A stretch of DNA of 32,000 nt from Nostoc sp. PCC 7120 = FACHB-418 (GCF_000009705.1 NC_003272.1:6090001-6122000), one strand, 5' to 3'; shown: positions 1 through 25,367, counted from the first letter of the stretch. Numbers and translations are program-made. The notes: generated from the letters alone by a model not told the origin.

Positions 1-2399
1 CCCTTGCCTGTGGCAACAAAGCTACTACCAGTATTATTAGAACAACCACTAGCGATTTGTTGAGATGGGTCGGTGAGATTTTCTGATAATTCTACTAACC
101 CAGAATTTGGATCGACACCAATATTATTTATTTGCACAGTGCCATTGACATTGAATTGGGAACTAGCAGTAATGTCATTTGTCAAAACTTCTCTAGGATT
201 GAGAAGATTGCGATACTGCAACCCAATGATTCCCTGAGTTGCAATATGAATATTACCGCCCCTTCCTTGGACGGCATTGGCAATAACATCACTGTTTTCT
301 AAACCGACAATATTTGGGGCTGTAATTTTAATATTACCGCCATTACCAACTGCCTCTGCACTGATGAAACTGCCATTACGCATCAGTAAGACATCGCGCA
401 CTTGCAGATCAATATTACCTCCTTCGCCTGCATTGGCTTCAGAACGAAGTTTGCTAGCTAGATCCAACTTCAAATAATTAGCCTGAATGAGCATATTGCC
501 GGCATTTCCTGTGCCTTTGCCGCTAACTACAATTTCGGTGCGATCGCTAAGACTCAAATCTTTTGTCGTTACATATACGGAACCCGCAACACCAGGGCCT
601 GTAGAGGAGGCATACAACCCACTTGGGCCAGTAGCATCCAGAGAGTAAAGCAGTTGCCCACTTGGTACTTGACTCACACCTGCAATATTGATGGAATTGG
701 CTTGAATAGCAATATTTCCGGCTTTACCATAGGTTTCAGTTGAGGTGGAAATTCGCCCTCCGTCCAGTAAGTTGAGCTTACCAACATTAAAAGTAATGTC
801 GCCACCTTGTCCCTGACCCAGACTAATCAGTTTGTCAGTAGAGAAATCGTAGTTACCATTTGTTGATGCGAAAAATCGTGTGGCAACTCCAGTTGACGAA
901 CTGCCACCCAAAATTACTTCGTCAGCATTAACAATAATGTTACCTGATGTACCTTCACCATAAGTACCAGTCCGAATACCAGGGCCGTTTAAGACCTCTA
1001 GTTTACCGACATTGAGAATTATATCTCCACCCCTACCTGTGGCAAATTCACGGATACTGGTACTCATCCCCGTCAAAAATGCAGGTTCACCTGTTGCAGT
1101 TTCACCTGTCACACTTAAGTTCTTGGCTGTGACAATAATATTGCCACCATCACCAGTTCCTCTAGCAGTAGCGCGTAATTCACCACCGTCCCGAATATTG
1201 ACTTGGGTGGCATCAATCGTGACATTACCACCTCGACCTTGGGAACCATTCATCGTATTAGATGCTAGTGTACTGACGCTAAATCGCTGCTTTGTCGGCG
1301 CATGGATGGCTTCCCCAATCACATTAACAGTTGTAGCTTTAACTGTAATATTGCCGGAATCTCCAATTCCATTGGTACGGGTGTTAATTTGTGCGCCATT
1401 TAAAACACTAAGAAGAGGTGTTTCAATTGTTATATCACCACCCCGTCCCCTAGCTGTTGGTTGAGAGTGAGTAGCAATTGCAGTGTTAGAAAGGGATGAG
1501 CGACCAATAAGTTCAAGGGATTCAGAGGCTTTGACTAGAATACCTTGTCCTGAACTTGTGCCTAAAGTGTGGGAAGTGATAGTTGAAGAACCAGACAAAG
1601 TTATTTTTTGCCCATGGAGAGCGATCGCCCCACCTTGGTTTCCACTGGTATCAACCTTGGCTACATTGCTAAAGTTAATATCTTGGAACTGAGCCACAGT
1701 ATTGAAATCTAAGCTGAATCCAGTAGTGTTTGCAGACAGTCCCACAATATTATTTGCTGCAACGCTCCCTAATTCAACTCTGCCATCGGTAGCAGTAATT
1801 GTACTCTGGTCAAAAGTTAAGTTATTTCCTACTAGTGCAAATGTGTTTCTCGCGGGAATTGCTAATTTTGACCCATAAACGTTAATTGAACTGGGACTGC
1901 TGCCCATTTGCAAACCAATCGGCACGCTCAAGGTGAGTAAAGCTGAATCCAGTGGACTTGTAGCACTAAACTTAAATCCATCAGCAAATTTAATACTTTC
2001 AGCAGTAGTAGCAACAAACGAACCACCAATTTTCAAACTTGCATTTTTGCCAAAAATAATCCCACTGGGATTGAGCAAAAATAAATTAGCACTACCATTG
2101 GCTCTAATTAGACCATCAATGTTGGAGACAGTGCCACCTGTTACTCTACTAAAAATATTCTGTATATCTGCGGCATTGTTGAAAAATGCCGAACCGTTGA
2201 TAGGAAACGAGAATTGGCTGAAGCTATGAAATAAATTATTACCTACCCGGCTACCATTGGTGATGGTGAAATGATTACTACCAGTCACAGTGGTGTTGAG
2301 AGTGGGATCAGGAATAACTTGAGCGTGAACACTACTGTTATCAATAGCAGATATGAAGATTGTGCCAATTAAGGCTAAACCAGTAAAATTTAGTTGCAT
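1..2399 (-). CDS. TpsA / filamentous-haemagglutinin-like two-partner-secretion exoprotein, paralogue 1 (3' end cut by the window edge)
   Basis: Absent from the ORF track because it stays open to the window edge. The reverse complement of 2397-2399 is ATG. My translation starts MQLNFTGLALIGTIFISAIDNSSVHAQVIPDPTLNTTVTGSNHFTITNGSRVGNNLFHSFSQFS...SANLFLLNPSGIIFGKNASLKIGGSFVATTAESIKFADG, which carries the TPS-domain motifs. The frame is still open at nt 3, where it reads ...DPSQQIASGCSNNTGSSFVATGK(G). The conserved C-terminal module is therefore truncated about 75-80 aa before its end. Confidence 0.88.
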   Translation of the reverse strand, partial: MQLNFTGLALIGTIFISAIDNSSVHAQVIPDPTLNTTVTGSNHFTITNGSRVGNNLFHSFSQFSFPINGSAFFNNAADIQNIFSRVTGGTVSNIDGLIRANGSANLFLLNPSGIIFGKNASLKIGGSFVATTAESIKFADGFKFSATSPLDSALLTLSVPIGLQMGSSPSSINVYGSKLAIPARNTFALVGNNLTFDQSTITATDGRVELGSVAANNIVGLSANTTGFSLDFNTVAQFQDINFSNVAKVDTSGNQGGAIALHGQKITLSGSSTITSHTLGTSSGQGILVKASESLELIGRSSLSNTAIATHSQPTARGRGGDITIETPLLSVLNGAQINTRTNGIGDSGNITVKATTVNVIGEAIHAPTKQRFSVSTLASNTMNGSQGRGGNVTIDATQVNIRDGGELRATARGTGDGGNIIVTAKNLSVTGETATGEPAFLTGMSTSIREFATGRGGDIILNVGKLEVLNGPGIRTGTYGEGTSGNIIVNADEVILGGSSSTGVATRFFASTNGNYDFSTDKLISLGQGQGGDITFNVGKLNLLDGGRISTSTETYGKAGNIAIQANSINIAGVSQVPSGQLLYSLDATGPSGLYASSTGPGVAGSVYVTTKDLSLSDRTEIVVSGKGTGNAGNMLIQANYLKLDLASKLRSEANAGEGGNIDLQVRDVLLMRNGSFISAEAVGNGGNIKITAPNIVGLENSDVIANAVQGRGGNIHIATQGIIGLQYRNLLNPREVLTNDITASSQFNVNGTVQINNIGVDPNSGLVELSENLTDPSQQIASGCSNNTGSSFVATGK

Positions 2400-2490
2400 C
2401 AACTTATCTCTAATTTTCTAGCCTGTGTATAGTTTTCCCAAGCAAAATGCTACAAGTTGAGGAAGTTTGTAATGTTATGGTGAGTTCTTT

Positions 2491-4950
2491 TTAGCCTTTA
2501 TGAAAAGCAGTACAAGTTAATGATGACTGTAAATTCACGGAAGATTTATCGGCAATTAATTCTATTTTGCCTTGGGTGTTACGATGCCAAGAAGTTGCTT
2601 GGATAGGAATTTGTGGTTGTATAGGTGTTTGTGCTTGTATTTGTGGTGTGTTTTGGAATGCAGATATATCACGAGTATCAGACCAAGTGCGATCGCTCCT
2701 CACTTCCTGTGTAGGATTTTGCGGCACACCACCCCTACCAGTGGCGACAAAACTACTACTATTAGTATTAGAACAACCAGTAGCTATTTGCTGTGATGGA
2801 TCAGTCACATTCTCCGGTAATTCTACTAAACCGGAATTAGGATCAACACCGACATTATTAATTTGAACTGTACCACTTACCCCAAATTGAGAACTGGCAG
2901 TAATATCACTTTCGGAAGTTTCGCCATCACGAAATTCTAAGCCCAATAAACCTTGAGTGGTAATTTGAATTTTGCCTCCATTTCCTGCAACGGCATTGGC
3001 AATAATATCACTGTTTTCTAGTCCGACAATTAAGGGAGAAATAACAGTAATGTTGCCCCCATTACCATTATTTCCAGCTCTAGCACTGATGAGACTGTTG
3101 TGGCGCATCAGGAGAATATCTCCTACAATCAGTCCTAGAGAACCGCCTTGCCCGGATGCAGCAGCAGTTCTAATTTGACCTTGTTGCTCTAACAAGAGCG
3201 AGTCGGTTTGAATTTGTAAATATCCACCATTGCCACTACCTATATTTTCCGCCGCGATATAGCCCTCATTACTAACTTTAATAGTGGGAGAGATAATAGT
3301 TAAATTTCCGCCATTGCCACTAGGAAATGCTGACAAACCTCTATTTTGTAAATACCTGGGTCGAAATCTTTGCCCTGATGCAGTAATACGACTATGATCC
3401 CGCAACACGGAATTAGAACCATCAACTTCCACAGATTCACTAGCATAAATAGTTAAATCACCCGCATTACCAGTATCAGAAGTGCTAGCAGAAATTACGC
3501 CAGATGCTCTCAGTATTAATTGTCTGGTATTAATAGTTATTACACCGCCATCTCCCCCGAAAAAGGTCGATGTAGCAATAGCGGATGCTCCACCTGATCC
3601 TGGATTTTCACCAAATAGAGAAATTATATCTGCGGTCATGTGAATATTACCGCCACTACCTCCTCCTTCAACCAGTGATGTAATCGTTCCCCCTTCTTTC
3701 ACAATTAAATCTCTAGTGGCGATCGAAATATTTCCACCCTTTCCTCCTCCTGGGAAAGATGGGCTATTAATGCCACTAGCACGAAAATTAATAGGAGAAA
3801 AACCTATAATTTGGATTGATTCTGCGGCAGTGACAGTAATATCGCCGCCTTTCCCCCCATTTGTATAGGTTGTGGATAAAATTCCGCCCCCATCCTGCAC
3901 AATCAACTGCCTAGCTGAAACATCTATATTCGCCCCATATCCACTACCCAGATTTTCAGACAAAATGAAACTTGGATTTTTTTGCGGCAATGCACCACTC
4001 ATTGCTAATAAATCTGCGTTAATTTTGATGCTACCTGGGCGTTGCTGTCCTTGATGTTGAATAAATACACTAGAACTATTTTGAATGTGAATATCTTTTC
4101 CTTGAAGATGAATCGAACCTCCAGGATTACCACTTGTATCGATGAGAGCAGCGCGAGTGAGATAGATATCTGATAAAATTTGACCAGAATGATAGTCAAA
4201 TTTCCAAATAGGAGTATTAGTATTGAGATGAACTGTTCCTGCTGTCATGCTTCCCAGTTCAATATGTCCGCTTTCAGCAATTAACACCCCTGCATCCAAT
4301 TGAATACCATTACCCAAGAGGGCTAATGTTTTCCCTGGAAACAGGCGCAAACCACCAAGTTGTGGATCACGAGTCACTGGGGCTAAAAAATTGGTGGGGT
4401 GGAGAAGATTGTGTCCTTGTCCTTGGACTTGAATGCTACCTGAATTTTGTCCCATCTGTAAGCCAATGGGTACGCTCATCGTGAGCAAAGAAGGTGTGGT
4501 TGTATCAGTTGTACTAAAGATAAAGCCATCGCTAAAGTTAATACTATCGGCTGTCGTTCCTAGAAAAGACCCACCAATATTTAACCTGGCATTAGAGCCA
4601 AAAATAATTCCATTGGGATTGAGTAAAAATAAATTGGCACTACCATTAGCTTGAATTAAACCATCAATATGAGAAATACTACTGCCCGTCACACGACTAA
4701 AAATATTTTGGATATCTAAAGCATTGTCGAAGAAAGCAGAGCCATTGGTGGAAATTGAGAATTGCTGTAAACTGTGAAACAGATTATTCCCAACACGGTT
4801 GCCATTAGTGATAGTGAAATGATTAGCACTTTGAGAAACATCGGTGTTGAGAGTTCCATCGGGAATAACTTGAGCGTTAACACAACTGCTGCCAATAACG
4901 CTTATGAACATTCCGCCGATTACACCAAAGACCGTAAAAGTTACTTTCAT
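2491..4950 (-). CDS. TpsA / filamentous-haemagglutinin-like exoprotein, paralogue 2
   Basis: The track ORF is 2491-4953, but its first codon (4951-4953) is TTG. The adjacent ATG at 4948-4950 gives MKVTF..., which parallels MKITF/MKLTF in sister copies. Signal peptide ends ...SSCVNA|QV. TPS motifs: NLFHSLQQFS, LFLLNPNGIIFG, GGSFLGTTADSINFSDG. The core has GGNI-type Gly/Asn-rich repeats. C-terminal module: ENSDIIANAV, GCS..SSFVATGRGGVPQNP, RSDRTWSD, SWHRNTQGKIEL, LTCTA. Confidence 0.92.
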   Translation of the reverse strand: MKVTFTVFGVIGGMFISVIGSSCVNAQVIPDGTLNTDVSQSANHFTITNGNRVGNNLFHSLQQFSISTNGSAFFDNALDIQNIFSRVTGSSISHIDGLIQANGSANLFLLNPNGIIFGSNARLNIGGSFLGTTADSINFSDGFIFSTTDTTTPSLLTMSVPIGLQMGQNSGSIQVQGQGHNLLHPTNFLAPVTRDPQLGGLRLFPGKTLALLGNGIQLDAGVLIAESGHIELGSMTAGTVHLNTNTPIWKFDYHSGQILSDIYLTRAALIDTSGNPGGSIHLQGKDIHIQNSSSVFIQHQGQQRPGSIKINADLLAMSGALPQKNPSFILSENLGSGYGANIDVSARQLIVQDGGGILSTTYTNGGKGGDITVTAAESIQIIGFSPINFRASGINSPSFPGGGKGGNISIATRDLIVKEGGTITSLVEGGGSGGNIHMTADIISLFGENPGSGGASAIATSTFFGGDGGVITINTRQLILRASGVISASTSDTGNAGDLTIYASESVEVDGSNSVLRDHSRITASGQRFRPRYLQNRGLSAFPSGNGGNLTIISPTIKVSNEGYIAAENIGSGNGGYLQIQTDSLLLEQQGQIRTAAASGQGGSLGLIVGDILLMRHNSLISARAGNNGNGGNITVISPLIVGLENSDIIANAVAGNGGKIQITTQGLLGLEFRDGETSESDITASSQFGVSGTVQINNVGVDPNSGLVELPENVTDPSQQIATGCSNTNSSSFVATGRGGVPQNPTQEVRSDRTWSDTRDISAFQNTPQIQAQTPIQPQIPIQATSWHRNTQGKIELIADKSSVNLQSSLTCTAFHKG
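2541..2700. repeat. 160-bp tract perfectly identical to 7554-7713 (direct repeat, inside the C-terminal module of TpsA paralogue 2)
   Basis: Base-by-base comparison of the two stretches, from aagatttatcggcaatt... to ...ccaagtgcgatcgctcct, shows no mismatch. The offset is a constant 5013 nt. Confidence 0.95.
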
Positions 4951-5024
4951 CAAGCTATTTCCATTTTCTACCCTGTAAGTAGTATTCCCAAAAGATGATT
5001 TTGCTAACCTTGTCGGATGTGTAA

Positions 5025-7412
5025 CTAACTTTTGGAAATTGCTGCACAGGTTAAAGATAGTTGTGCCTGAGTAGAAGATTGCTCTGCAACTAATTCAATT
5101 TTGCCTTGGGTATTACGATGCCAGGAAGTAGCTTGGATGAGAATTTGTGGCTGTGTGGGTGTTTGTGATTGTATTTGTGGTCTGTTCTGGAATGCAGATA
5201 TATCACGAATGTCAGACCAAGTGCGATCGCTCCTCATTTCTTGTGTGGGATTTTGTGGTATTCCACCCCTGCCTGTGGCGACAAAACTACTACCAGTAGT
5301 ATTAGAACAACCACTAGCAATTTGTTGTGATTGATCGGTGATATTGGCCGGCAATTGGATTAAACCGGATTTGGGATCAACACCAATATTATTTACTTCA
5401 ACTGTACCGTTCACACCAAATTGAGAACTAGCAGTAATATCATTTTCGGAAGTGAGTTGAGGACTATATTGTAAGCCGATAATTCCCTGAGTTGTGATTT
5501 GAATATTGCCCCCTTTTCCGTGGACAGCATTGGCAATGATATCACTGTTTTCTAAACCTACAATGATAGGCGAATTAATAGTGATATTACCACCATCACC
5601 AATTGCATTTGATGTAGCGTTAATGGCACTATTATGACGCATCAATAGGGTTTGGGTATTAACATCAATGTTGCCCCCTTCTCCCATTTGTGTGACAGCA
5701 GTAATAGCACCTTGAGTATTCAACACTAGAGAATTGACATTTATTTTTACCATTCCAGCATTACCTCGACCATCATTTCTAACATTAATTAATCCACTAT
5801 TAGCAACCTTCAATTGCTGAGTGGTAATTTGTACATCTCCACTATTTCCAGTCAAAACTCTTGATGTACCGGCTTGTTGAACTGTTGATGAACCTATAAA
5901 ACTGGGAATTAAGAATGATTGTCTGGGCTTGCCAGCAACTTCTATTGATTCTGTGGCATGGAGAGTGACATTTCCGGCTTTCCCACTGGCGTAGGAAGAA
6001 GCTTCCACTCTCGCCCCACTTTGAACTGATAATCTAGCTGTATTCACAATCAAATTGCCAGAATTACCAGCAGCAAGAGTTGAAGAACTTAGGGAACTGG
6101 GTGCAAAACTTGTGGAGACGGTTTCAACTCCGGCTAATTCAATAGATTCTGTGGCCTTGACTGTCACATTTCCTGCCGCACCTGTTCCAATTGTAGAGGT
6201 CGTGACTACAGAACCATCAAGAATTTCTAAGCGATTCGCAACTACGCTCACATCTCCACCCTTTCCAGAAAGAAAAGTCAGTCCAGAAATACCACTACGA
6301 TTAGTTGATATCTTTCCTACTCCTGCTACTTGAATATTGCCAGAGGCATTAACAGTAATATTGCCTCCGCCTACGGAATTACTAATGTTACTGGTCAGAA
6401 TAATACCACCATTATTGGCCATCAGGTCTCGTGTGGATATTTCAATATTGCCTACCATCCCAGTACCGATCGCTCCTGCTCGTACTGCACTAGTAGTAGT
6501 ACCACTGGGATTATCACCAGTGACCGTTAGTAGTTTTGTAGCATGGACTGAAATTTTGCCCGGAGTTTGGACATTTGTCATGTTTTGAATCGATACACGA
6601 GAACCCCCACTCAAAGAGACATTAGCCCCCCATAAATGAATTTCACCATTGCCACCTGTTGACAGTAAAGTTTGGTTAGATAGGTCAATATTCCCAAAAC
6701 TTTGAACATCTTGATAACCTAAACTCCAACCTAAATTATTGGGAGTAAGGCTAACAGTCCCCTCCCCAACTGCACCGAATTCAATTCGTCCTTGAGAAGT
6801 GGAAAGATTACGACTGTCTACAAATATATCTCCTCCTATAAGTGCTAAAGTTTTTCCTGTGGGTACTTGAAGTTGAGTTCCAGATGCTTGAACTTGAATG
6901 GCACTAGGATTCTGCCCAAACTGCAAACCGAGAGGTATATTGATGGTTAACAAAGGAGATATTGTAGGATTGGTGGCACTAAACTCAACTCCATCAAGAA
7001 ACTGAATGCTGTTAGCTGTTGTACCGACAAACGATCCACCAATATTTAACCTGGCATTAGCTCCGAAAATAATCCCATTTGGGTTGATTAAAAATACATT
7101 GGCACTTCCCTTGGCATTGATAGAACCATTAATGGTAGAAACATGACCACCAGTCACTCGACTAAAAATATTTTGGACATCTGAAGCGTTGTCAAACAAG
7201 GCAGAGCCATTGTTAGGAATAGAAAATTGGCTAAAGCTATGAAATAAATTATTACCAACACGAGTACCGTTGGTGATGCTGTAATGATTACTACCGCTCA
7301 CAGAAGTATTGAGGGTGTTGTCGGGTGTTACTTGTGCGTGAACACTAATGTTGCCAATAACTAAGATGTAGATTGCACTAAGTAAGCTTAGGTTAGCAAA
7401 AGTTATTTTCAT
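5025..7412 (-). CDS. TpsA / filamentous-haemagglutinin-like exoprotein, paralogue 3
   Basis: 795-aa ORF with ATG at 7410-7412. Signal peptide ends ...SVHA|QV. TPS motifs: NLFHSFSQFSIP, VFLINPNGIIFGANARLNIGGSF. The core is Gly/Asn/Ser/Thr-rich. C-terminal module: ENSDIIANAVHGKGGNIQITTQGIIGL, GCSNTTGSSFVATGRGGIPQNP, RSDRTWSD, SWHRNTQGKIEL, LTCAA. Confidence 0.93.
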   Translation of the reverse strand: MKITFANLSLLSAIYILVIGNISVHAQVTPDNTLNTSVSGSNHYSITNGTRVGNNLFHSFSQFSIPNNGSALFDNASDVQNIFSRVTGGHVSTINGSINAKGSANVFLINPNGIIFGANARLNIGGSFVGTTANSIQFLDGVEFSATNPTISPLLTINIPLGLQFGQNPSAIQVQASGTQLQVPTGKTLALIGGDIFVDSRNLSTSQGRIEFGAVGEGTVSLTPNNLGWSLGYQDVQSFGNIDLSNQTLLSTGGNGEIHLWGANVSLSGGSRVSIQNMTNVQTPGKISVHATKLLTVTGDNPSGTTTSAVRAGAIGTGMVGNIEISTRDLMANNGGIILTSNISNSVGGGNITVNASGNIQVAGVGKISTNRSGISGLTFLSGKGGDVSVVANRLEILDGSVVTTSTIGTGAAGNVTVKATESIELAGVETVSTSFAPSSLSSSTLAAGNSGNLIVNTARLSVQSGARVEASSYASGKAGNVTLHATESIEVAGKPRQSFLIPSFIGSSTVQQAGTSRVLTGNSGDVQITTQQLKVANSGLINVRNDGRGNAGMVKINVNSLVLNTQGAITAVTQMGEGGNIDVNTQTLLMRHNSAINATSNAIGDGGNITINSPIIVGLENSDIIANAVHGKGGNIQITTQGIIGLQYSPQLTSENDITASSQFGVNGTVEVNNIGVDPKSGLIQLPANITDQSQQIASGCSNTTGSSFVATGRGGIPQNPTQEMRSDRTWSDIRDISAFQNRPQIQSQTPTQPQILIQATSWHRNTQGKIELVAEQSSTQAQLSLTCAAISKS

Positions 7413-7503
7413 CAGCCAAACTTGTAATTATTTACCTTGTATCTAGTATTCCCAAGGTAAATTTTGCTATTGGGGTAGCTGTGTAATTTTACGATGAGTT
7501 TTT

Positions 7504-10389: not shown

Positions 10390-10477
10390 CACTTATGTCT
10401 GTGATACTTAATGATTTATGCTTATGATTCCCTTCAGATAGATACTTCTAACCCTCACTTGTGGAGATTCAGGACAG

Positions 10478-12976: not shown

Positions 12977-12992
12977 CACCCCTTCTCCATTT

Positions 12993-13048
12993 CAACTTTA
13001 TGCTTAGGTTTCCCACAATACAACTTTATACTTAGGTTTCCCACAATA
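12993..13048. repeat. Tandem duplication of a 28-bp unit in the spacer upstream of TpsA paralogue 5
   Basis: caactttatGcttaggtttcccacaata (12993-13020) is followed immediately by caactttatActtaggtttcccacaata (13021-13048), with one mismatch. Each unit contains the TTCCC (GGGAA on the coding strand) spacer motif. Confidence 0.95.
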
Positions 13049-13070
13049 TTTGTTTGACTCAACACTCCAA

Positions 13071-15521
13071 TTAACTTTGAGCCGCCGCCGCACAGGTTAA
13101 TGGTGGTTGCACCTGAGTAAGAGATTTATATGCAAGTATCTCGATTTTGCCATGAGCATTACGTCGCCAACCAGTGGCTTGGACAAGAACCAGAGATTCG
13201 GGGATTTGTGCTGTCACTGCGCCAGTATTCCGGTATGCAGAGATGTCGCGCACATCAGACCAAGTGCGATCGCTCCTTACCTCCTGATTGGGATTTTGCG
13301 GTGTTCCACCTCTACCTGTAGTGACAAAACTACTATCACTGTTCTCTGCACATCCACTAGCAATCTTTTGCGATGAATCGGTGAAATTTGTTGGTAATGC
13401 AACTAAACCCGAATTCGGGTCTACACCGATGGTATTGACTTGTACTGTACCATTTACTCCAAACTCTGAACTGGCTGTAATATCATTTCCTGGTGTCAGT
13501 TGAGAACCGTATTCTAAACCAATAATTCCTTGAGTGGTGATGTTAATATTGCCACCTTGACCTCGAACAGCATTAGCTGTGATATCACTGTTTTCTAAGC
13601 CGACAATGGTGGGTGAACTAATGTTGATATTGCCGCCATTACCCGTACTGCCTGCTGTGGTTGTCATTTTACTGCGATCGCGCATTAACAGCAAACTTCC
13701 CACTTTTAAGTCTATATCTCCACCATTCCCAGATTCAGTCTGTGCTTGAATCAAAGCCTGATTTTTTAATTGGATAATATCTGCGGTAATATTCAGGTTG
13801 CCGGCATTACCAGTACCTTCACTCGTTACAGTCACAGTAGCACCATCCATCAGGCTCAGATTTGGTGTTGTAATGCTAAGACTACCAGCATCTGCCGTCA
13901 GCATATCTGGAAAGTCAGATGATTGACGCAACTGTGCATTAAGACGCATTGCAGAAGAATTAATTGCACTGTTGTTATTATTATTACGACCACTAATTGC
14001 GATCGCTTCACTTGCATTGATACTGACATTTCCCCCGTTACCAGCAAACAGTGTAGATGAACCAATTCTTCCCCCATCTAAAATTTGTAATTTGCCAGTA
14101 TTCAATATCAAATCTTTGTTATCTCCGAACGCGAATGTAGCTAAAGTAATCGCACTGTCAAATCCGGAAGGGCTGTTTCCGACCACTGTGGTGTTTTGAT
14201 TGCGAATTGAAATTTTACCACTACTTCCACTGCCAAATGTGACTGAAGAAAGGGAAGCTCCACCGGATATTAGTAAATTATCACCATTAACGAATATATC
14301 ACCAGCACTGCCAGAAGCAAAACTCAAAGTGCTAATACCAGTAACTCTGTTGGGGTTTATTTGCGAAAAACCAGATATTTCAACTGTTTTTGCATCAATT
14401 TCAATATTACCACCAGGAGCAATTCCCGAAGTTAGATTATTTAAACCAGATCCTTCTTGGAGGGTAAATTTTCGCGTAAAAATACCAATATTTCCCCCTG
14501 CTCCAATTCCATAAGTTTCGCTACGAACTCCACTCAACACTTCTCCATCGCTACTTGTGCCAATTAAATCAATTCCTGTTGATGCTTGAAGGTTAATTTC
14601 TCCACCAGGAAGATAGCCATAATTTTGTGCAAGTATCAATGAACCATCTGTTAAACGGATATTTCCGGCTTGTAAACGAACAGAACCTGAATTTACACCA
14701 CTTACATTTATCAGTGACTTTTCTGCTAATTGAATATAACCGAAAATTTGTCCATTCTCATAACCCAACATATAACCTTGTGCATTTGGGATTAAATCAA
14801 CTTGCCCAGTTCCATTGGTACTAACCAATTCTACCCGTCCTTCTGGGGCAGTCAATATAAACCCATCTATTTGTAAATTACCGCCTACCAATGCTAAGGT
14901 TTTTCCTGGTTTCACTTGTAGTTCTGTCGAGTTGGGTGTTGGAACGATAAAAAAACCGCTATTTGTATATCCTCTTCCTTGAGCCTTGATAGCAGCAGAA
15001 TTACTACCCATTTGCAACCCCACTGGTGCGTTCATTGTCAGCAGAGGTTTATCAGCACCTTGCACAGTACTAAATTCCGTCCCATCGGCAAACTTGATAC
15101 TATTGGCAGTTGTGGCTATAAATGAACCACCAATATTTAAGCTGGCATTTTGCCCAAAAATAATTCCTGCGGGGTTGAGTAAGAATAAGTTGGCACTACC
15201 CTTGGCACTAATATCACCATCAATGTTAGAAATATTACCACTAGTCACCCGACTAAAAATATTTTGGATATCAGTGGCATTGTCAAATGAAGCAGAACCA
15301 CCACTAGGCAAGGAAAATTGGCTGAAACTATGAAATAAATTATTCCCAATACGAGTGCCATTGTTAATAATGTAACTATTGCTTCCATTTATGGAAGTAG
15401 TGGACGTAACAGAAGTATTGAGGGTATTATCGGGACTTACTTGTGCGTGAACACTATTGTTGTAAACAACAGATAACCAGATTACACTCAGCACACCAAA
15501 CCCGACAAAAGTTAATTTCAT
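13071..15521 (-). CDS. TpsA / filamentous-haemagglutinin-like exoprotein, paralogue 6
   Basis: 816-aa ORF with ATG at 15519-15521. Signal peptide ends ...SVHA|QV. TPS motifs: NLFHSFSQFSLP, DIQNIFSRVTSG, LFLLNPAGIIFG. The core resembles that of paralogue 5. C-terminal module: GCAENSDSSFVTTGRGGTPQNP, RSDRTWSD, GWRRNAHGKIEI, LTCAA. Confidence 0.93.
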   Translation of the reverse strand: MKLTFVGFGVLSVIWLSVVYNNSVHAQVSPDNTLNTSVTSTTSINGSNSYIINNGTRIGNNLFHSFSQFSLPSGGSASFDNATDIQNIFSRVTSGNISNIDGDISAKGSANLFLLNPAGIIFGQNASLNIGGSFIATTANSIKFADGTEFSTVQGADKPLLTMNAPVGLQMGSNSAAIKAQGRGYTNSGFFIVPTPNSTELQVKPGKTLALVGGNLQIDGFILTAPEGRVELVSTNGTGQVDLIPNAQGYMLGYENGQIFGYIQLAEKSLINVSGVNSGSVRLQAGNIRLTDGSLILAQNYGYLPGGEINLQASTGIDLIGTSSDGEVLSGVRSETYGIGAGGNIGIFTRKFTLQEGSGLNNLTSGIAPGGNIEIDAKTVEISGFSQINPNRVTGISTLSFASGSAGDIFVNGDNLLISGGASLSSVTFGSGSSGKISIRNQNTTVVGNSPSGFDSAITLATFAFGDNKDLILNTGKLQILDGGRIGSSTLFAGNGGNVSINASEAIAISGRNNNNNSAINSSAMRLNAQLRQSSDFPDMLTADAGSLSITTPNLSLMDGATVTVTSEGTGNAGNLNITADIIQLKNQALIQAQTESGNGGDIDLKVGSLLLMRDRSKMTTTAGSTGNGGNINISSPTIVGLENSDITANAVRGQGGNINITTQGIIGLEYGSQLTPGNDITASSEFGVNGTVQVNTIGVDPNSGLVALPTNFTDSSQKIASGCAENSDSSFVTTGRGGTPQNPNQEVRSDRTWSDVRDISAYRNTGAVTAQIPESLVLVQATGWRRNAHGKIEILAYKSLTQVQPPLTCAAAAQS

Positions 15522-15587
15522 GAATCCAGTTTTTGTTTCTTCGTCTGCAATCTATTGTTCCCATTTTGGTAAGTTTTGGAACATTAA

Positions 15588-18341
15588 TTAATTTTCGACT
15601 ATAGCAGTACAGGTCAACTGTGATAAGTGCAATGTGGAAGAGAGTGTAGAGACTAGCTCAACTTTACCTTGAGCATTACGATGCCAAGAAGTAGCTTGGA
15701 CGGGAATTTGTGGCTGTGCGGGTATTTGTGCTTGTATTGAAGGGGTGTTCTGGAATGCAGAGATGTCGCGGATATCAGACCAAGTGCGATCGCTCCTCAT
15801 ATCTTGCGTGGGATTTTGTGGTATTCCGCCCCTGCCTGTGGCGACAAAACTACTACCAGTATTTGCTGAACAACCTGTAGCAATTTGTTGTGACGAGTCA
15901 GTAACATTCCCAGGTAGTTCAATTAAGCCAGAATTAGGGTCAACACCAAAGTTATTAATTTGTACAGTGCCGCTAACTCCAAATTGAGAACTGGCTGTAA
16001 TATCACTTTCGGAGGTAGCTTGGGGACGGAATTTTAGTCCAAATAAACCCTGAGTTTGAATATCGATGTTACCACCAGCCCCTTCAATCGCATTGGCAGT
16101 AATATCACTGTTTTCTAAACCAATAATAATCGGTGCATGAATACTGATATTGCCACCTGTGGCTGTACCTGTAGCATTAGTATTAATTTTACTGCCAGAA
16201 CGCATCAGTAGAACATCAGCAGCTAGACTAATATTACCGCGATCGCCTACAGAAACTTCTGAAAGCAGACTGCCTCCTTGCTCCAGCTTAATCCGGTTGG
16301 CATTCACGATCAAGTTACCTGAATTGCCACCACCTGTATTACTGACAGAAATTTGCCCATGATTAAGAACATTGAGCCGATTCGCCACTAGATTAACTGA
16401 ACCAGCATCAGAGGTTGTAGTAGAAGCTGCCGTAATGGTGCTTGGGAGAATGCGACCATCAGTTAAGGGTTTGGACATACCCTCTACAGTAATATTGTTG
16501 ACTTGCAAATTAACATTACCCGCCGCACCATTACCATCTGCGGAGGAGGTAATTTGTCCACCGTTGAACACACGCAGGTTATCGGCTGTCAGGTTAAGGT
16601 TGCCACCTGAACCCGTAGAACCATTGCCCAGAGAGGCTTTGATACCTGTGATAGTTTGGCTATATCCATCAATCATCGGTTCGCTGACCTGTATATCTTT
16701 AGCTCGAATCTCAATATCTCCTGCTGTACCGTTTGCTCCTGGTATAAAAAGACCCAAGAAATTTACTTGAGAACCTACTACCTCACTAGTAATGCCCCCA
16801 CCATTTGATAATATGAGATTCCCTGTATCGATAGAAATGCGTCCTCCTTGTCCTGTTGTCCCAGATTCCAGTGAAGCAAGAACCGCACTAAATATACCAA
16901 CAGGGTTAGCGCCTTGAATCTCTAAACTCTCGGTAGCTCGAATGGTGACTTCTCCTCCTCTACCATTCCCTCCCAACACACTGCTACTAATACGACCACC
17001 ATTGAATAGGTGAATCCTTTGAGCATCAACAGTAACTTGTCCACTCTGATTATTGCTTCCCGATAGAAGTAAATTACCAATTGAAGTTGCAGAAGCTCCA
17101 AATAAAGTTTCATATCCCAATAGATCCACATCTGTAGCGTGTATGGTGATGTCTCCAGTCCTAGAGTTATTACCAGAAGTGCTGGACACAAGCCAAGCTC
17201 CATTCGTCATCTTTAAACGTCCAGTTTCGATGGTTATATTTCCTGCTTGTCCTGTTGCTGGTGGCCCTGGAAGTACAAATAATCCTAATGAATTGCCTAC
17301 GGAAGTGCTGATCCCAGCGAAAAGAGGTTGGTTAACAAAATCAATGGTTCCTAAAAGATCGATAAATTCTGTAGTGTGGATAGTAATACCTTTTCCTTGT
17401 CCAGCAAATGTTTTTGCACCTATGTTCGAGCCATCCTTTAAGGTTAATCCCCGTCCCCAAATATTGATTGCGCCACCGTTGCTACCATCCGCAGTAACAA
17501 AAGAAGTTTGTTGAAGTGTAATTGTACCCCCGTTGACAGTATTTGGCGAAGAAGTGAGTTGCCATCCGGTTTCCTTGTCTAGGGCAATTTCTCCACTTTG
17601 CAGCGCCCATAATTCGATATGTCCATCAGGAGCAGAAATACTGGCACTATCAATATCAATCTGACTACCCACAAGAGCTAAAGTCTGATTGGGAATCACT
17701 GATAATGTTGGTAATCTAACAAAGAACAAACCGAAACCTAACTCTGGAAGCCCTTGCACTTGAATTGGTGAGCCTTGGACTTGAATTGCTCCGGCATTAC
17801 TTCCCATCTGTAACCCCACGGGTACACTCATAGTCAATAATGGCAGTGCAGCAGAGTTAGTTGCACTAAATTCTGTCCCATCGGAAAACTTAATACTACT
17901 CGCTGTTGTTCCGACGAACGAACCACCGATATTTAGGCTGGCATTTGGCCCGAATACAATCCCGTTAGGATTCATCAAAAATAAACTGACTGGGTTATTG
18001 CTACTGAGCGTCCGAATCAACCCATCTATCTGAGAAACATTACCGCCTGTGACTCGGCTAAATATCGTTGTAATATTTGGCGTATTTGTTAAATCAAAGG
18101 TTGCCTTGCCACCTGTCGGCACAGAGAAATTACTGAAGCTGTGAAATAAATTATTTCCCTTATCAATACCATTGAGAATAGAAAAATCATCACCAATGGC
18201 GTTGACAGTAGTGTTAGTTGTGTTATCAGATGTGACTTGAGCTAGGGTTGGTAGTGAGAGAGTGGAAGTGAACAAGCCAGTGGTCAATGCTGTTAACAAC
18301 AATTGAAACCAGAGATTTGATTCTTTGTAGTTAATTCTCAT
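15588..18341 (-). CDS. TpsA / filamentous-haemagglutinin-like exoprotein, paralogue 7
   Basis: The track ORF is 15588-18347, but it begins with TTG-GTG. The first ATG (18339-18341) gives MRINYKESNLWFQLLL.... Signal peptide ends ...PTLA|QV. TPS motifs: NLFHSFSNFSVP, FDLTNTPNITTIFSRVTGGN, SLFLMNPNGIVFG. The core resembles that of paralogue 8. C-terminal module: GCSANTGSSFVATGRGGIPQNP, RSDRTWSD, SWHRNAQGKVEL, LTCTA. Confidence 0.92.
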   Translation of the reverse strand: MRINYKESNLWFQLLLTALTTGLFTSTLSLPTLAQVTSDNTTNTTVNAIGDDFSILNGIDKGNNLFHSFSNFSVPTGGKATFDLTNTPNITTIFSRVTGGNVSQIDGLIRTLSSNNPVSLFLMNPNGIVFGPNASLNIGGSFVGTTASSIKFSDGTEFSATNSAALPLLTMSVPVGLQMGSNAGAIQVQGSPIQVQGLPELGFGLFFVRLPTLSVIPNQTLALVGSQIDIDSASISAPDGHIELWALQSGEIALDKETGWQLTSSPNTVNGGTITLQQTSFVTADGSNGGAINIWGRGLTLKDGSNIGAKTFAGQGKGITIHTTEFIDLLGTIDFVNQPLFAGISTSVGNSLGLFVLPGPPATGQAGNITIETGRLKMTNGAWLVSSTSGNNSRTGDITIHATDVDLLGYETLFGASATSIGNLLLSGSNNQSGQVTVDAQRIHLFNGGRISSSVLGGNGRGGEVTIRATESLEIQGANPVGIFSAVLASLESGTTGQGGRISIDTGNLILSNGGGITSEVVGSQVNFLGLFIPGANGTAGDIEIRAKDIQVSEPMIDGYSQTITGIKASLGNGSTGSGGNLNLTADNLRVFNGGQITSSADGNGAAGNVNLQVNNITVEGMSKPLTDGRILPSTITAASTTTSDAGSVNLVANRLNVLNHGQISVSNTGGGNSGNLIVNANRIKLEQGGSLLSEVSVGDRGNISLAADVLLMRSGSKINTNATGTATGGNISIHAPIIIGLENSDITANAIEGAGGNIDIQTQGLFGLKFRPQATSESDITASSQFGVSGTVQINNFGVDPNSGLIELPGNVTDSSQQIATGCSANTGSSFVATGRGGIPQNPTQDMRSDRTWSDIRDISAFQNTPSIQAQIPAQPQIPVQATSWHRNAQGKVELVSTLSSTLHLSQLTCTAIVEN

Positions 18342-18403
18342 CACCAATACCTTAGATTGACCTCGTTAAAGTTAAAGTTCCCTTGAAGGTATGAAAAATA
18401 ACA

Positions 18404-21145
18404 TTATTGAATTTTAGGAACAGCAGCACAGGTTAATGATGGTTGTACCTGATTCGGAGAGTTATCTGCAACCAGTTCAATTTTGCCTTGGGCGTTGCGA
18501 TGCCAAGAAGTAGCCCGGATGAGAACTTGTGGTGTTGTCGGTATTTGGGCCGTCACATTACCAGTTTTGTGGAATGCAGAGATGTCGCGCACATCAGACC
18601 AAGTGCGATCGCTCCTCACTTCCTGATTGGGATTTTGTGGTATTCCACCCCTGCCTGTGGCGACAAAACTACTACCATTATCACCAGAACAACCTGTAGA
18701 CACTTTTTGTGACGGATCATTTACATTTGCTGGTAATTCTACTAAACCTGAGTTGGGATCAACGCCGATAGTATTGACTTGAACCGTACCACTTAGCCCG
18801 AATTGGGAACTGGCGGTGATGTCACTATCAGGGGTGAGTCGGTCACGGAACTCAAACCCTAACAAACCTTGAGTTGTAATTAGAATATTACCACCTCGTC
18901 CTAAGACTGCATTGGCAGCAATATCACTGTTTTCTTTAGGGACAGCAATAATCGACTCGGCACTAATATTAATGTTACCACCCGTGGAAGTACCACGAGC
19001 ATTGGTAACAATATTACTGCCGTGTCTGAGGAGAACAAAATCACTGGCGCTAAGTTGAATGTTACCACGACCACCTCCATTCACCTCGGCTCGCAGACTT
19101 GCGCCATTATCTAAAAATATCTGACTAGCATTAATATTTAAGTTACCAGCATCCCCGGAACCAAGATTGCTGACAGTAATTTCTGCCCCATCACGAACAC
19201 TCAAGCGGTCGGCATTAATATTAACTGACCGAGCAGAAAAATTATTGGTGGCAGATGCTGTAATAGTACTAGGCAGTATCCGACCATCCCTTAAAGGTTT
19301 AGAAAGACCCTGTACATCAATATCATTAACCAGTAAATTCACCGTGCCAGCAGATCCTTGACCCAAGCTAGATGAAGTGATCTGGCCACCTTGGAACACG
19401 CGTAAGCGTTCAGCTTGCAGATTGATATTACCACCATCACCAATCGCATTTTTATTCACTGCCACAGTAATACCACTAACTGTATTACTAAAACTATCGA
19501 GCGTTGGCTTACTGACTTCTACATTTTGAGCCTGAATTGCTATATTCCCGGCATTGCCAGTACCTGATAGTTCACTAGCGATAGACCCACCATTTGTGAC
19601 GCGCAAATTTCCTGTGTTAATAGTAATATTGCCAGCTTCACCTTGAGCAAAAGCTTGAATTGAACTAATGATAGCACCAGACAATCCCCCAGCCGTAGTT
19701 CCATTAATTTCCAGAGACTCGCTAGCTTGAATAGAGATATCTCCAGAATTACCGATGGTGATTGAGTCTAAACCAGGAATTGGGAAACCTATTATACTGG
19801 CACTAATACGTCCACCGTTCAGCAGACGAACTTGATTAGCTTCAATGGTGATAGTACCGCTATTATTTCTTTTGCCACTATTAACTAAGGTGGTAATAGC
19901 ACTAGGTCTAAAATTAGCAACTCCAGTAAAAGGATTGGGAAATGGGTTATAGCCACTCACTTCCACGTCCTTAGCAGAAACGGTAATGTTGCCTGTAGTA
20001 GTATCGTTGATGGGAGTAAGGCTGAAGGTTGAGAAATCGAAGGTAAAACCATTGTTGATAGATTGCAACCATGCTCCATTCTGAATCCGTAAACTTTCAG
20101 TCTCGATGGTAATATCTCCCGCCTTTGCCCCACTTCCAGATACAGTAGTGAATAATCCAGGGGTGTCATAATTTTGTGGATCTGATACTCCCAACAAATC
20201 AATAAATTCAGTGGTTTTGACGGTAATCCCTTGTCCTTGTCCAGATGCTCCTGTAGCCGAAGTAATCCCCGAACCTTCCTGAAGTGTTAAACCTCGGCCA
20301 CGGATGTTAATAGCTCCCCCATTTATTCCACTAGTATCGATATATGAGGCTTGTCTGAGGGAAATCAGTCCCCAGTCAGCTGTCGTAGGGCTAGTTAGTT
20401 GTAATCCTGTTTGATTATTTAATCCTACCTCTGCATTCCGCAATGCCCACAATTCCACTCTGCCGTCTGGATTGGCAAGACTAGTTTGATTAAGATCAAT
20501 TTCACTACCAACTAAAGCGACGGTTTGAGCCTTAAAACTTTGCGCGGGGCGAAACAGGAAATTAAGTGCTGGTGTGCCTTGGGTACGAATTGCTCCAGCA
20601 TTGCTGCCTAGTTGTAGTCCCACAGGCACACTCATGGTTAATAAAGGCTGTGTTGTAGAGTCGGTAGCGCTAAATTTACTCCCGTCAGCAAATTGAATAC
20701 TTTCGGCAGTAGTTCCAACAAAAGACCCACTAATGTTGAGGCGGGCATTAGGCCCAAATACAATTCCGCTAGGGTTAAGTAGAAACAGACTAACAGGGTT
20801 TTTGCTATTGATAGTCTGAATTAAGCCATCGATATGGGAAATGCTACCTCCAGTGACTCGACTAAAGATAGTAGAAATATTAGGTGTATTGACTAAATCA
20901 AATGTGGCTGAACCTGGATTGGGAACGGAAAATTGCCCAAAGCTGTGAAATAGATTACTACCTGAGGCACTACCATTAGTGATTGTGAAATGATTGCCAT
21001 TTTTAGTGATATCAGTATTGAGACTGCCGTCTGAAGTGACCTGAGCAGAGGCACAACTATTCCATAGAATGATTCCTAATGGCAACAGCAGCGAACTTGT
21101 AATGATTCGATTTGCCAAACCCCACCCAAAAAAAGGCTGTCTCAT
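18404..21145 (-). CDS. TpsA / filamentous-haemagglutinin-like exoprotein, paralogue 8 (first cargo gene after tpsB)
   Basis: 913-aa ORF with ATG at 21143-21145. Signal peptide ends ...CASA|QV. TPS motifs: NLFHSFGQFSVP, FDLVNTPNISTIFSRVTGGS, SLFLLNPSGIVFG. C-terminal module: GCSGDNGSSFVATGRGGIPQNP, RSDRTWSD, SWHRNAQGKIEL, LTCAA. Confidence 0.93.
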   Translation of the reverse strand: MRQPFFGWGLANRIITSSLLLPLGIILWNSCASAQVTSDGSLNTDITKNGNHFTITNGSASGSNLFHSFGQFSVPNPGSATFDLVNTPNISTIFSRVTGGSISHIDGLIQTINSKNPVSLFLLNPSGIVFGPNARLNISGSFVGTTAESIQFADGSKFSATDSTTQPLLTMSVPVGLQLGSNAGAIRTQGTPALNFLFRPAQSFKAQTVALVGSEIDLNQTSLANPDGRVELWALRNAEVGLNNQTGLQLTSPTTADWGLISLRQASYIDTSGINGGAINIRGRGLTLQEGSGITSATGASGQGQGITVKTTEFIDLLGVSDPQNYDTPGLFTTVSGSGAKAGDITIETESLRIQNGAWLQSINNGFTFDFSTFSLTPINDTTTGNITVSAKDVEVSGYNPFPNPFTGVANFRPSAITTLVNSGKRNNSGTITIEANQVRLLNGGRISASIIGFPIPGLDSITIGNSGDISIQASESLEINGTTAGGLSGAIISSIQAFAQGEAGNITINTGNLRVTNGGSIASELSGTGNAGNIAIQAQNVEVSKPTLDSFSNTVSGITVAVNKNAIGDGGNINLQAERLRVFQGGQITSSSLGQGSAGTVNLLVNDIDVQGLSKPLRDGRILPSTITASATNNFSARSVNINADRLSVRDGAEITVSNLGSGDAGNLNINASQIFLDNGASLRAEVNGGGRGNIQLSASDFVLLRHGSNIVTNARGTSTGGNINISAESIIAVPKENSDIAANAVLGRGGNILITTQGLLGFEFRDRLTPDSDITASSQFGLSGTVQVNTIGVDPNSGLVELPANVNDPSQKVSTGCSGDNGSSFVATGRGGIPQNPNQEVRSDRTWSDVRDISAFHKTGNVTAQIPTTPQVLIRATSWHRNAQGKIELVADNSPNQVQPSLTCAAVPKIQ

Positions 21146-21321
21146 CTTCAGAGTTTCCTGATAATACTCAATTTATAATTCCCTAAATAGTATTGTTTTT
21201 AACAATAGTAACCAGGGGGACTGATTAGAGGTTAGGGCGTGTAAGCGATCCGCCCAATGTATAAATATCCGTATCTTAGGCACAAATAAACTACAAGAAG
21301 GCCTCAGGGGCAAAACAGGTA

Positions 21322-23088
21322 TTAAAACGGAGAATATTGTAATGAGAAGTACAAACCATTTTCTTGGAGCGATCGCTTTTCACCATCTACGGATGTTAGA
21401 GGAATACCCCAATCTAGCCTAACTGAGAAACTATCCCCTTGTTTCCATAGCAGCCCCAACCCAGTACCCACAAAGGTACTTGGTGACGGGTTACTACCTT
21501 GGGTATTCCAGCCTGTGCCTATGTCGATAAATGGTGTTAGTTGTAGCACGCCTCCCAAGTTATCAGCACGGACAATCGGTAACCTCAATTCTCCAGACAA
21601 CAATAAACCATTATCTGTAAGTAATGTATCTTGGCGATAACCCCGGACACTTTGCTGACCACCAAGACCAAATTGTTCCAAGGGTACTAGGGAAGTTGAG
21701 GCTAGTTGAATATCGCCTCTGGCTAAAAATAGGGTGTCTGGTGCTAACTGTCTTACCCATTGCGCCTGTCCCCGCCAGGCGAAAAAGCGACTATCTGGTT
21801 CATCCTGATTCACATTAGCATCGAACCAATTTACTCCCAAGCTAAATTGCGATCGCGCTGCAAAAACTTGCTCATTGCTGCGTTGGGTATACTCCTGGGT
21901 AAAGCGGAAGGCAGAAATCTTAGTTCTTCCTTCTGCATCTGCACCAGGTGATAAAGGAAACCCACCAATATTATCCAGCCCTAACTCAGTCTGGCTTTCT
22001 TGGCGCGAGAAGGATAGCCCCACCGCTAATTCTTGGGTTGGCTTTTGAATGAGTGGCTGTCGATAGCCAAATTCATAAGAGGTCGTGTTGGATTGAATAT
22101 CTAGGACGCTGAATGGGTCTTCAATTACACGGTTCCACCCCTGGTTAAAACCGAAGGATACGGTACCATTGCGGGCATTAATGGGCAGTTGGTAATTTAA
22201 ATTAATGGCATTACTGCCATCTGTGTTGTTGTACCCTACGCTGAGAGTGTCGCCTAAACCTAGTAAATTTGCCTCTTGCAGATTTACCCCCCGGCGAAAA
22301 CTACCCACACTAGGCGATCGCCCATTATCTAAAGTTGCTGTCAGTGAGAAGGTATCGGCTTCTTGTACCTCAACTTGCAAGATGTTAGTTCCAGGTTCTA
22401 CACCCATTTGCAACTCGGCTGACAAATTTTGAATACGCGGATCGAGGCGCAGTAGTTGTAGCTTTTCTATTAAGCGCGGTACGTTGAGTGGCTTACCAGC
22501 ACCCAATTGAATGCGATCGCGAATGTATTGACTACGCAGTCGCCGATTACCAACTATTTTAATGTCCTGCAAACTGCCTTCTACTATCTGAATAGTAATT
22601 ACTCCAGCTTCTACTGTCTGCGGTGTAATTACAGCCCCTGTCGTTACATAGCCGTTATCAGTGTAGAGTTTGGTGATAGCGTCTCTAACTTGCAACAGTT
22701 CTGCAAATGATACTTCTCGTCCCACGAAGGGATCTGTAATAGGGGTAAATTTTTCTGGTGGGAAAACTTGACTACCAACAACTTCAATACGATCAACTCG
22801 AAATTTGGCATTAGTATCATTTTCTACTGGATTTTGCTGCTCTAGTAGATCCGTAGGAGCAGGTAATTGCTCTTGATCTGATGGTTTTTGCAATACTTCC
22901 GACGGTAAAGTCCTCGTAGGAATATCTTCTAAACGATCCTTTGGCAAGGAGCCAGGGTCAGGTGTTTGGGCGATCGCTGGATGATAGTCGCATAATACTG
23001 CTGCTACCACAAAAGCATATTTGAGAAGTTTGAGTTTAGTAATGGAATTTTCTGTATATGAAACTAATAATTCTGAATTTACATTCAT
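21322..23088 (-). CDS. TpsB outer-membrane transporter (ShlB/FhaC/HecB family, Omp85 superfamily, POTRA-containing)
   Basis: 588-aa ORF. It has a hydrophobic signal-like segment (LLKYAFVVAAVL...AIAQ) and a Pro/Gln-rich linker. POTRA-like segments: FRVDRIEVVGSQVF...LYTDNGY and ITIQIVEGSLQDIKIVGNRRL. The loop-6 signature is GGQQSVRGY. The C-terminal half has alternating beta-strand character and ends in the aromatic terminus ...YFSLQYSPF. It lies directly upstream of, and co-oriented with, the TpsA genes. Confidence 0.88.
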   Translation of the reverse strand: MNVNSELLVSYTENSITKLKLLKYAFVVAAVLCDYHPAIAQTPDPGSLPKDRLEDIPTRTLPSEVLQKPSDQEQLPAPTDLLEQQNPVENDTNAKFRVDRIEVVGSQVFPPEKFTPITDPFVGREVSFAELLQVRDAITKLYTDNGYVTTGAVITPQTVEAGVITIQIVEGSLQDIKIVGNRRLRSQYIRDRIQLGAGKPLNVPRLIEKLQLLRLDPRIQNLSAELQMGVEPGTNILQVEVQEADTFSLTATLDNGRSPSVGSFRRGVNLQEANLLGLGDTLSVGYNNTDGSNAINLNYQLPINARNGTVSFGFNQGWNRVIEDPFSVLDIQSNTTSYEFGYRQPLIQKPTQELAVGLSFSRQESQTELGLDNIGGFPLSPGADAEGRTKISAFRFTQEYTQRSNEQVFAARSQFSLGVNWFDANVNQDEPDSRFFAWRGQAQWVRQLAPDTLFLARGDIQLASTSLVPLEQFGLGGQQSVRGYRQDTLLTDNGLLLSGELRLPIVRADNLGGVLQLTPFIDIGTGWNTQGSNPSPSTFVGTGLGLLWKQGDSFSVRLDWGIPLTSVDGEKRSLQENGLYFSLQYSPF

Positions 23089-25355: not shown

Positions 25356-25367
25356 AGTTGAAATTTG

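Follow-up and report, generated by a model that had tools for sequence, protein, structure and literature searches.

The region described here is a window of 32,000 nucleotides from Nostoc sp. PCC 7120 = FACHB-418 (GCF_000009705.1, NC_003272.1:6090001–6122000), presented as one strand, with positions counted from its first letter. It contains a locus for two-partner secretion (TPS), in which a single tpsB gene, coding for the transporter, is followed on the same strand by a tandem array of tpsA genes, coding for the cargo proteins. The locus is confirmed as a type Vb (two-partner) secretion system with one TpsB gene and eleven TpsA genes. The transporter gene and the cargo genes present in the window, labeled A1–A8 in the order in which they follow tpsB, are located as listed here.

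21322–23088, minus strand: tpsB (All5116, BAB76815.1), 588 amino acids (aa), with a signal peptide, a Pro-rich linker, POTRA, and a 16-strand-type barrel
18404–21145, minus strand: A1 (All5115, BAB76814.1), 913 aa; PF05860, E = 3.8e-63; mature-protein Cys819 and Cys906
15588–18341, minus strand: A2 (all5114 by position), 917 aa as publicly annotated (919 aa from an upstream TTG, 18347); PF05860, E = 4.3e-62; Cys824 and Cys911
13071–15521, minus strand: A3 (all5113 by position), 816 aa; PF05860, E = 9.3e-65; Trichormus variabilis orthologue with 89% identity, dN/dS 0.20–0.24
10478–12976, minus strand: A4 (all5112 by position), 832 aa; PF05860, E = 1.3e-69; T. variabilis orthologue with 86% identity
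7504–10389, minus strand: A5 (all5111 by position), 961 aa, the longest; PF05860, E = 2.8e-67; extra β-helix turns seen as alignment insertions
5025–7412, minus strand: A6 (All5110, BAB76809.1), 795 aa; PF05860, E = 2.6e-74; the copy used for structure prediction
2491–4950, minus strand: A7 (all5109 by position), 819 aa; PF05860, E = 8.2e-67; exact product found on public contigs
1–2399, minus strand: A8, truncated at the window edge, with 799 of its 885 aa inside; PF05860, E = 4.4e-69

The position of tpsB and the seven complete tpsA open reading frames (ORFs; 18404–21145, 15588–18347, 13071–15521, 10478–12979, 7504–10392, 5025–7412, and 2491–4953, all on the minus strand; 795–962 aa, n = 7) agree with those proposed earlier from the DNA alone (referred to below as the sequence-only reading). 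The same is true of the intact reading frames, which are open in 11/11 genes of the array, and of the spacing, which, with the starts taken from the public annotation, is 176 bp between tpsB and A1 and 62–94 bp between the copies in the window. The eighth gene runs past the left edge, as had been noted, starting at 2399 and missing ~85 residues of 885. The count of eight copies is correct for the window but not for the array, which comprises 11 tpsA genes, all5115 to all5104. Extension to the left was carried out along public contigs, with the window joined to an adjacent locus (L007) through an identical 7,161-bp overlap. It revealed three further tpsA genes after A8, coding for proteins of 815, 825 (All5105), and 828 aa, and then genes for an aminotransferase, a GT2 protein, a PBP1C-type penicillin-binding protein, and an alpha-2-macroglobulin. 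Locus tags were assigned by accession offset (tpsB as All5116, the first cargo as All5115, and the 795-aa copy as All5110), in agreement with the literature. The product of all5105 (BAB76804.1), located outside the window, has 740 aa in the original annotation vs 825 aa in this analysis, the original being 85 residues short at the N terminus. Between All5110 and All5105, in the all5105–all5109 region, the original locus tags exceed the ORFs by one.

The copies are real and not the result of an assembly error, since the same proteins are encoded on the finished 6,413,771-bp chromosome and in several independent assemblies. Variation in copy number among PCC 7120-like strains, suggested by a draft assembly with 9 apparent copies (GCA_003990585.1), was considered and rejected. 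The junction in that assembly lies inside a 189-bp repeat shared by A5 and A7, and A6 and A7, missing from it, are carried by another contig of that assembly, 5 kb long; thus, the nine-copy array is an artifact of a repeat-induced mis-join. The repeat corresponds to a single pair of segments.

7525–7713 and 2512–2700, minus strand: 189-bp near-identical tract (3 mismatches) in the 3′ ends of A5 and A7, indicative of recent gene conversion

Profile searches with Pfam and NCBIfam bear out the placement of both partners in the TPS and ShlB families. All eight cargo proteins of the window cover the complete TPS profile PF05860 (positions 1–252) with E values from 4e-62 to 3e-74, and TIGR01901 concurs. 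All5116 is matched by POTRA_2 (3e-24), ShlB (8e-33), and Omp85 (1.5e-20), with one POTRA stretch reported, and carries the L6 motif VRGY at residue 481, as well as FIDIG at residue 520. This protein has been found among those of an outer-membrane preparation of Anabaena 7120 (PMC12548389, Table S2), and cyanobacterial TpsBs have been assigned to the Hmw1B subgroup (Heinz & Lithgow 2014). The expected signal peptides are predicted in 11/11 cargo copies, each with a hydrophobic N terminus followed by A-Q-V at residue 25–34. The pairing of these cargoes with All5116 is based on gene linkage, with tpsB located 176 bp upstream on the same strand.

The eleven cargo proteins share a common anatomy, in which conserved ends enclose a strongly diverged center. 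In an alignment of all copies, the mean pairwise identity is 66% in the TPS domain, 32% (range 25–50%) in the β-helix center, and again 67% in the last ~220 columns. The AlphaFold2 (AF2) model of A6, based on a 76-sequence alignment, contains a continuous β-helix from residue 28 to ~675, with pLDDT mostly >85, and its best Foldseek matches are HxuA (2e-7), EtpA (8e-6), and the secretion domain of HMW1 (3e-4). The passenger part of TpsA is thus predicted to be a right-handed β-helix. The pairs that are most similar in the center are neighbors (A1/A2, A3/A4, and A10/A11, 46–50% identity), as expected from old tandem duplications. No DNA segment with ≥88% identity was found across the array except for the 189-bp tract of A5 and A7; the copies are thus ancient, and gene conversion is rare and limited to the conserved ends. 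Recent amplification of the array is ruled out by the absence of other such tracts, as well as by cores that are 25–50% identical.

The distribution of variability along the chain bears directly on the notion that the array is a toxin arsenal, a contact-dependent inhibition (CDI) or polymorphic-toxin locus composed of TpsA proteins with toxic C-terminal domains. CdiA itself belongs to the TpsA family, the domain name attached in UniRef is "FhaB/tRNA nuclease CdiA-like TPS", and tandem variant copies resemble orphan cdiA-CT cassettes. However, the C-terminal part is conserved here (67%) and it is the center that varies (32%), a VENN motif is present in no copy, the gaps of 52–94 bp carry no ORF and are too small for immunity genes, and the proteins, with 800–960 aa, are far shorter than CdiA. 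The conserved C terminus, the lack of VENN, and the lack of space for immunity genes contradict such an arsenal, and we consider it extremely improbable.

Comparison with Trichormus variabilis, for which complete genomes are available, shows the same syntenic locus (ADH, tpsB, array, aminotransferase, GT2, penicillin-binding protein, and alpha-2-macroglobulin) with five cargo genes. Clear orthologues are tpsB (93% identity), A3 (89%), A4 (86%), and A11 (86%), whereas the other two copies of T. variabilis and eight copies of PCC 7120 are without a close partner. The dN/dS values of the three orthologous cargo pairs are 0.18–0.28, and are alike in the TPS, central, and C-terminal parts, with 0.13 for tpsB. 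The maintenance of the copies by selection, previously argued from their signal peptides, TPS-domain motifs, and open frames, is therefore substantiated for the three copies with T. variabilis orthologues, and the retained copies are constrained. The copy numbers of the two species, 11 and 5, with only 3 shared, indicate that the content of the array evolves by birth-and-death turnover and changes quickly.

These data also bear on the possibility that expression is limited to the first copy, with the others kept as silent donors that, like pilS or tpsC cassettes, would allow antigenic variation by gene conversion. The layout, a variable core between conserved 5′ and 3′ ends, is suited to exchange, one conversion tract of 189 bp does connect A5 with A7, and some orthologue pairs have elevated dS at their ends. 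On the other hand, all copies are full-length genes, each with a start codon, a signal peptide, and the promoter-like motif described below; purifying selection acts over the whole gene in the three orthologous copies, including the last one, A11; and the cores are only 25–50% identical, with no mosaicism beyond the A5/A7 tract. Full-length copies with their own start and motif, together with whole-gene purifying selection, contradict the role of silent cassettes, making it a very unlikely one.

A survey of 55 loci of other species with a tpsB orthologue, in which cargo genes directly downstream within 10 kb were counted, yielded at least four cargo genes in 9 loci, three in 5, two in ~16, one in ~8, and none in several. 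Multi-copy arrays are therefore common in Nostocales, and the array of PCC 7120 has the most copies among those that could be fully counted in this analysis. Individual copies do decay in some lineages, as indicated by split and fragmentary genes. In a metagenome contig (L004:9471–11911, JGI 3300029221), the counterpart of A3 is called as two ORFs of 456 and 346 aa, and in Cyanocohniella sp. LLY (L032:14192–17895), two tpsA copies are present only as fragments flanking a 207-aa ORF.

Another gene, coding for a protein with a caspase-like CHAT domain and TPR, is located within 10 kb of tpsB in 32/59 related loci, mostly right after the last tpsA. The protein is ~850–910 aa long and has an apparent signal peptide. 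Among the relatives in which such a gene comes after the array is Nostoc linckia NIES-25 (L021). No CHAT gene was found at the loci of PCC 7120 or T. variabilis. The CHAT protein may be a third partner of the system, for example a maturation protease.

L027:12277–14826, L032:18719–21274, L059:2923–5580, and L062:4032–6761: examples of the CHAT and TPR gene, with 28 further loci

The most conserved part of the cargo proteins is the C-terminal end of the chain.

5028–5390, minus strand: C-terminal module of ~120 aa, shown for A6, bracketed by Cys702 and Cys789; the module forms the 3′ end of every copy

Each mature TpsA contains exactly two cysteine residues, 86–89 residues apart and both located in this module (11/11 copies). 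Among 76 family members drawn from many cyanobacteria, the two cysteines never vary, and the pattern F..TGRGG.P.NP...W.D.R accompanies them. A profile of the last 150 aa had no match to a Pfam family and found no PDB chain at E ≤ 10. Searched against 1.84 billion representative clusters (50% identity), the module profile matched 6,197 clusters at E ≤ 1e-3 and 3,811 at E ≤ 1e-10; the module thus defines a large protein family without a Pfam entry. The match always ends no more than ~15 residues from the end of the protein, the proteins being mostly 790–1,100 aa long, with a maximum of 1,775, and 8/8 sampled matches had an N-terminal TPS domain and nothing else. In HMW1 and HxuA, the C terminus is kept in the periplasm, where a disulfide-closed loop locks the cargo in TpsB (Guerin 2017 review). 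On the basis of that precedent, as well as of the assignment of cyanobacterial TpsBs to the Hmw1B subgroup, we propose that the module may be a functional analogue of the HMW1/HxuA anchor, with the disulfide bond itself inferred from the cysteine pattern.

A different role for the same segment is assumed in a serious rival, in which the TpsA paralogues, instead of being tethered, leave the cell as exoproteins or become part of the matrix, and the module acts as a recognition site or pro-domain. Cleavage, for example by the CHAT protease, would remove the module, or it would bind polysaccharide or lipopolysaccharide, and the proteins would be destined for the sheath, the extracellular polymeric substance (EPS), or a loose coat resembling an S-layer. 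The presence of the CHAT and TPR gene near tpsB in 32/59 related loci would fit this role, and so would the label "S-layer family protein" that NCBI has given to many members of the family. Additionally, Npun_F1714 of Nostoc punctiforme, a protein of the size typical of the family (815 aa), was detected by mass spectrometry in a proteomic data set; the module of A6 is predicted by AF2 to be mostly disordered, as expected of a cleavable or partner-binding segment; and FhaB provides a precedent of C-terminal processing. That the loci of PCC 7120 and T. variabilis lack a CHAT gene speaks against release, as does the strict pattern of two cysteines at the extreme C terminus, a trait of the anchored TpsA subfamily, and a search of exoproteome texts and supplements for PCC 7120 found no TpsA. 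We therefore regard release, serious as it is, as somewhat unlikely.

The gaps between the genes are short, and a J-Box-like motif is located in them at a nearly constant distance from the start codons.

21175–21183, minus strand: J-Box-like motif GGGAATTAT, located 38 nt upstream of the A1 start codon
18374–18382, 15554–15562, 13006–13014 (with a second one at 13034–13042), 10424–10432, 7445–7453, 4981–4989, and 2431–2439, minus strand: J-Box-like motifs of the other copies

The sequence GGGAAnnnTA (GGGCA in one case) is found upstream of 11/11 copies. It lies on the coding strand, at a distance of 38–43 nt from the ATG, and has an AT-rich 5′ flank. The gaps in the window (742 bp) contain nine GGGAAnnnT sites vs ~0.2 expected from the rate in shuffled sequence, an enrichment of ~40-fold, while the sites inside the genes are explained by Gly-Asn codons. 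The motif also precedes 5/5 copies of T. variabilis and 69/99 orthologous cargo genes in the 55 other loci vs ~4 expected, with a median position of –39 and an interquartile range from –41 to –38; it is absent upstream of tpsB. The J-Box, GGGaAtacT, is the extended –10 element of SigJ-dependent promoters in N. punctiforme (PMC6495340), and two of the copies agree perfectly with the published consensus. The presence of a conserved motif before every copy suggests that each tpsA gene has its own alternative-sigma promoter, which would qualify the description of the array as an operon and makes the assumption of a single transcript doubtful. A general scan with promoter and terminator consensus sequences was uninformative, since the counts were equal to those in shuffled sequence.

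Taken together, the data are best explained by a type Vb locus that encodes a repertoire of tethered β-helical TpsA proteins sharing the All5116 pore and expressed from promoters of the J-Box type preceding each gene, a joint reading to which we assign a probability of about 60%. Of this, the architecture of TpsA is shown, by its sequence as well as by profile searches and the predicted structure. A Sec signal peptide would carry each TpsA into the periplasm, where the TPS domain would dock onto the POTRA domains of the shared TpsB (All5116, of the Hmw1B type), and the strongly diverged shaft of the β-helix would be the part facing the outside. Tethering, promoters, and coat are inferred. A periplasmic disulfide between the two cysteines would close a loop of ~87 residues unable to pass through the pore, and this loop would keep each TpsA tethered to its TpsB at the cell surface, as in HMW1 and HxuA. 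Each gene would be driven by a promoter of the J-Box type (SigJ/SigF-like, extended –10), in addition to read-through from tpsB, and the copies would compete for one pore, jointly forming a mixed β-helical surface coat or adhesin repertoire. Such a repertoire would change as copies arise by tandem duplication or are lost, with gene conversion now and then affecting the conserved ends and the retained copies under purifying selection. A surface or exoprotein repertoire, the functional guess made in the sequence-only reading, thus remains the most likely one.

Several observations weigh against this interpretation or against its parts. In the AF2 model, the confidence for the last 120 aa of A6 is low (pLDDT 31–58), despite the highest sequence conservation. 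Sequence comparison detects no similarity of the module to HMW1, HxuA, or any PDB chain, and the loop of the module, with ~87 residues, is much longer than that of HMW1. For these three reasons the anchor stays an analogy; the module may work like that of HMW1 and HxuA, and membership in their anchored subfamily is not claimed. None of the proteins All5104–All5115 appears in the outer-membrane table examined (PMC12548389, Table S2), and their absence from the searched exoproteome papers, mentioned above, counts here as well. Further tpsB genes are present in the genome of PCC 7120, so that "one pore" is a statement about gene linkage only. With respect to the promoters, all5113 was up 2.07 ± 1.01-fold in Anabaena over-expressing sigJ (alr0277; PMC2779892), a signal in their favor but a weak one. 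Npun_F1714, a TPS gene of the same size in N. punctiforme, goes down during hormogonium development driven by SigJ, and sigma mutants show no change in it at t0. Alternatively, the motif could act at the RNA level in a polycistronic transcript, and no intergenic terminators were predicted in the array.

A more far-reaching proposal adds the CHAT protein as a third partner, and joins the plug-module TpsA family, the J-Box promoters of individual genes, and this protein in a previously undescribed three-layer surface display. As a whole we regard that combination as unlikely. If it were true, a disulfide-closed plug would park each β-helix in an Hmw1B-type pore, up to eleven cargoes would compete in Nostocales, transcription would determine the composition of the coat, which would change rapidly from one species to the next, and a periplasmic CHAT protease would release or mature the cargoes in many relatives.

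The region adjoining the locus within the window (24366–28122, minus strand) codes for a GT2 glycosyltransferase (329 aa), a membrane protein of the VTT/DedA type (220 aa), and a polytopic membrane protein of 654 aa that Pfam does not match, and this neighborhood looks envelope-related. A scan of the window with Rfam gave no match.

An observation on another TPS gene touches on the possible exposure of such proteins to phages. In a substrain of PCC 7120 selected for resistance to phages A-4L/AN-15, the substitution A127V was reported in alr1906 (PMC10811720 supplement). This mutated "filamentous hemagglutinin" gene is a different TPS gene of Nostoc 7120, and a direct link between the array and phage resistance was accordingly rejected; the case of alr1906 gives circumstantial support to the relevance of cyanobacterial TpsAs to phages. 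As a separate matter, mis-mapping of reads among such paralogues may account for the "variant hotspots" that were reported for Nostoc CCCryo 231-06 in its hemagglutinin genes (PMC9307615). The copy numbers of 11 in PCC 7120 and 5 in T. variabilis, with 3 copies shared, show rapid turnover of a repertoire whose individual members are each constrained. Turnover combined with constraint is the pattern expected of proteins that face phages, grazers, symbiotic hosts, or neighboring cells.

Two-partner secretion is commonly taught as one pore and one cargo. The locus described here provides one pore gene and eleven intact cargo genes in a tractable model organism, and its layout opens to test the choice of substrates by one TpsB, the role of the cysteine module as a general anchor, and the switching of individual cargoes. 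The layout had already been put on record in 2010, but no characterization of the function of the array was found, and a literature search gave no reported function for all5104–all5116. All5116 was mentioned together with All5110–All5115 in one sentence by Arnold, Zeth & Linke 2010 (PMC2878562), who counted six cargoes at the same locus, compared to eleven here. Their lower count is probably due to later genes that are truncated or split in the original annotation. The accessible part of that publication contains nothing on the structure of the paralogues, the C-terminal module, promoters, or turnover.

The closest known counterparts are HMW1/HMW2 with HMW1B of Haemophilus influenzae and HxuA with HxuB, which have in common with the array of PCC 7120 a TpsB of the Hmw1B type, an N-terminal TPS domain, a β-helix, and a C-terminal pair of cysteines. 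Unlike in HMW1 and HxuA, the sequence of the module is dissimilar, the loop has ~87 residues, no glycosyltransferase of the HMW1C type is linked to the locus, and eleven tandem cargo genes, rather than one cargo per pore gene, are placed behind one pore.

The use of one TpsB by more than one TpsA is not without precedent. LspB with LspA1 and LspA2 of Haemophilus ducreyi is such a case, with one TpsB and two TpsAs. Another is documented in Bordetella, where FhaC serves both FhaB and FhaS (review PMC5422565). In contrast to PCC 7120, FhaC/FhaB/FhaS and LspB/LspA1/LspA2 are characterized by two cargoes and a TpsB of the FhaC type, with no tandem short paralogues carrying a C-terminal cysteine module. 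Tandem variant sequences following a TPS locus, as well as recombination, are shared with CdiB/CdiA and its orphan cdiA-CT/cdiI units and with tpsA and tpsC of Neisseria. However, the CdiA and tpsC cassettes are truncated C-terminal units without promoters, accompanied by immunity genes and variable at the C terminus, whereas the array of PCC 7120 consists of complete genes with a variable center and no immunity genes.

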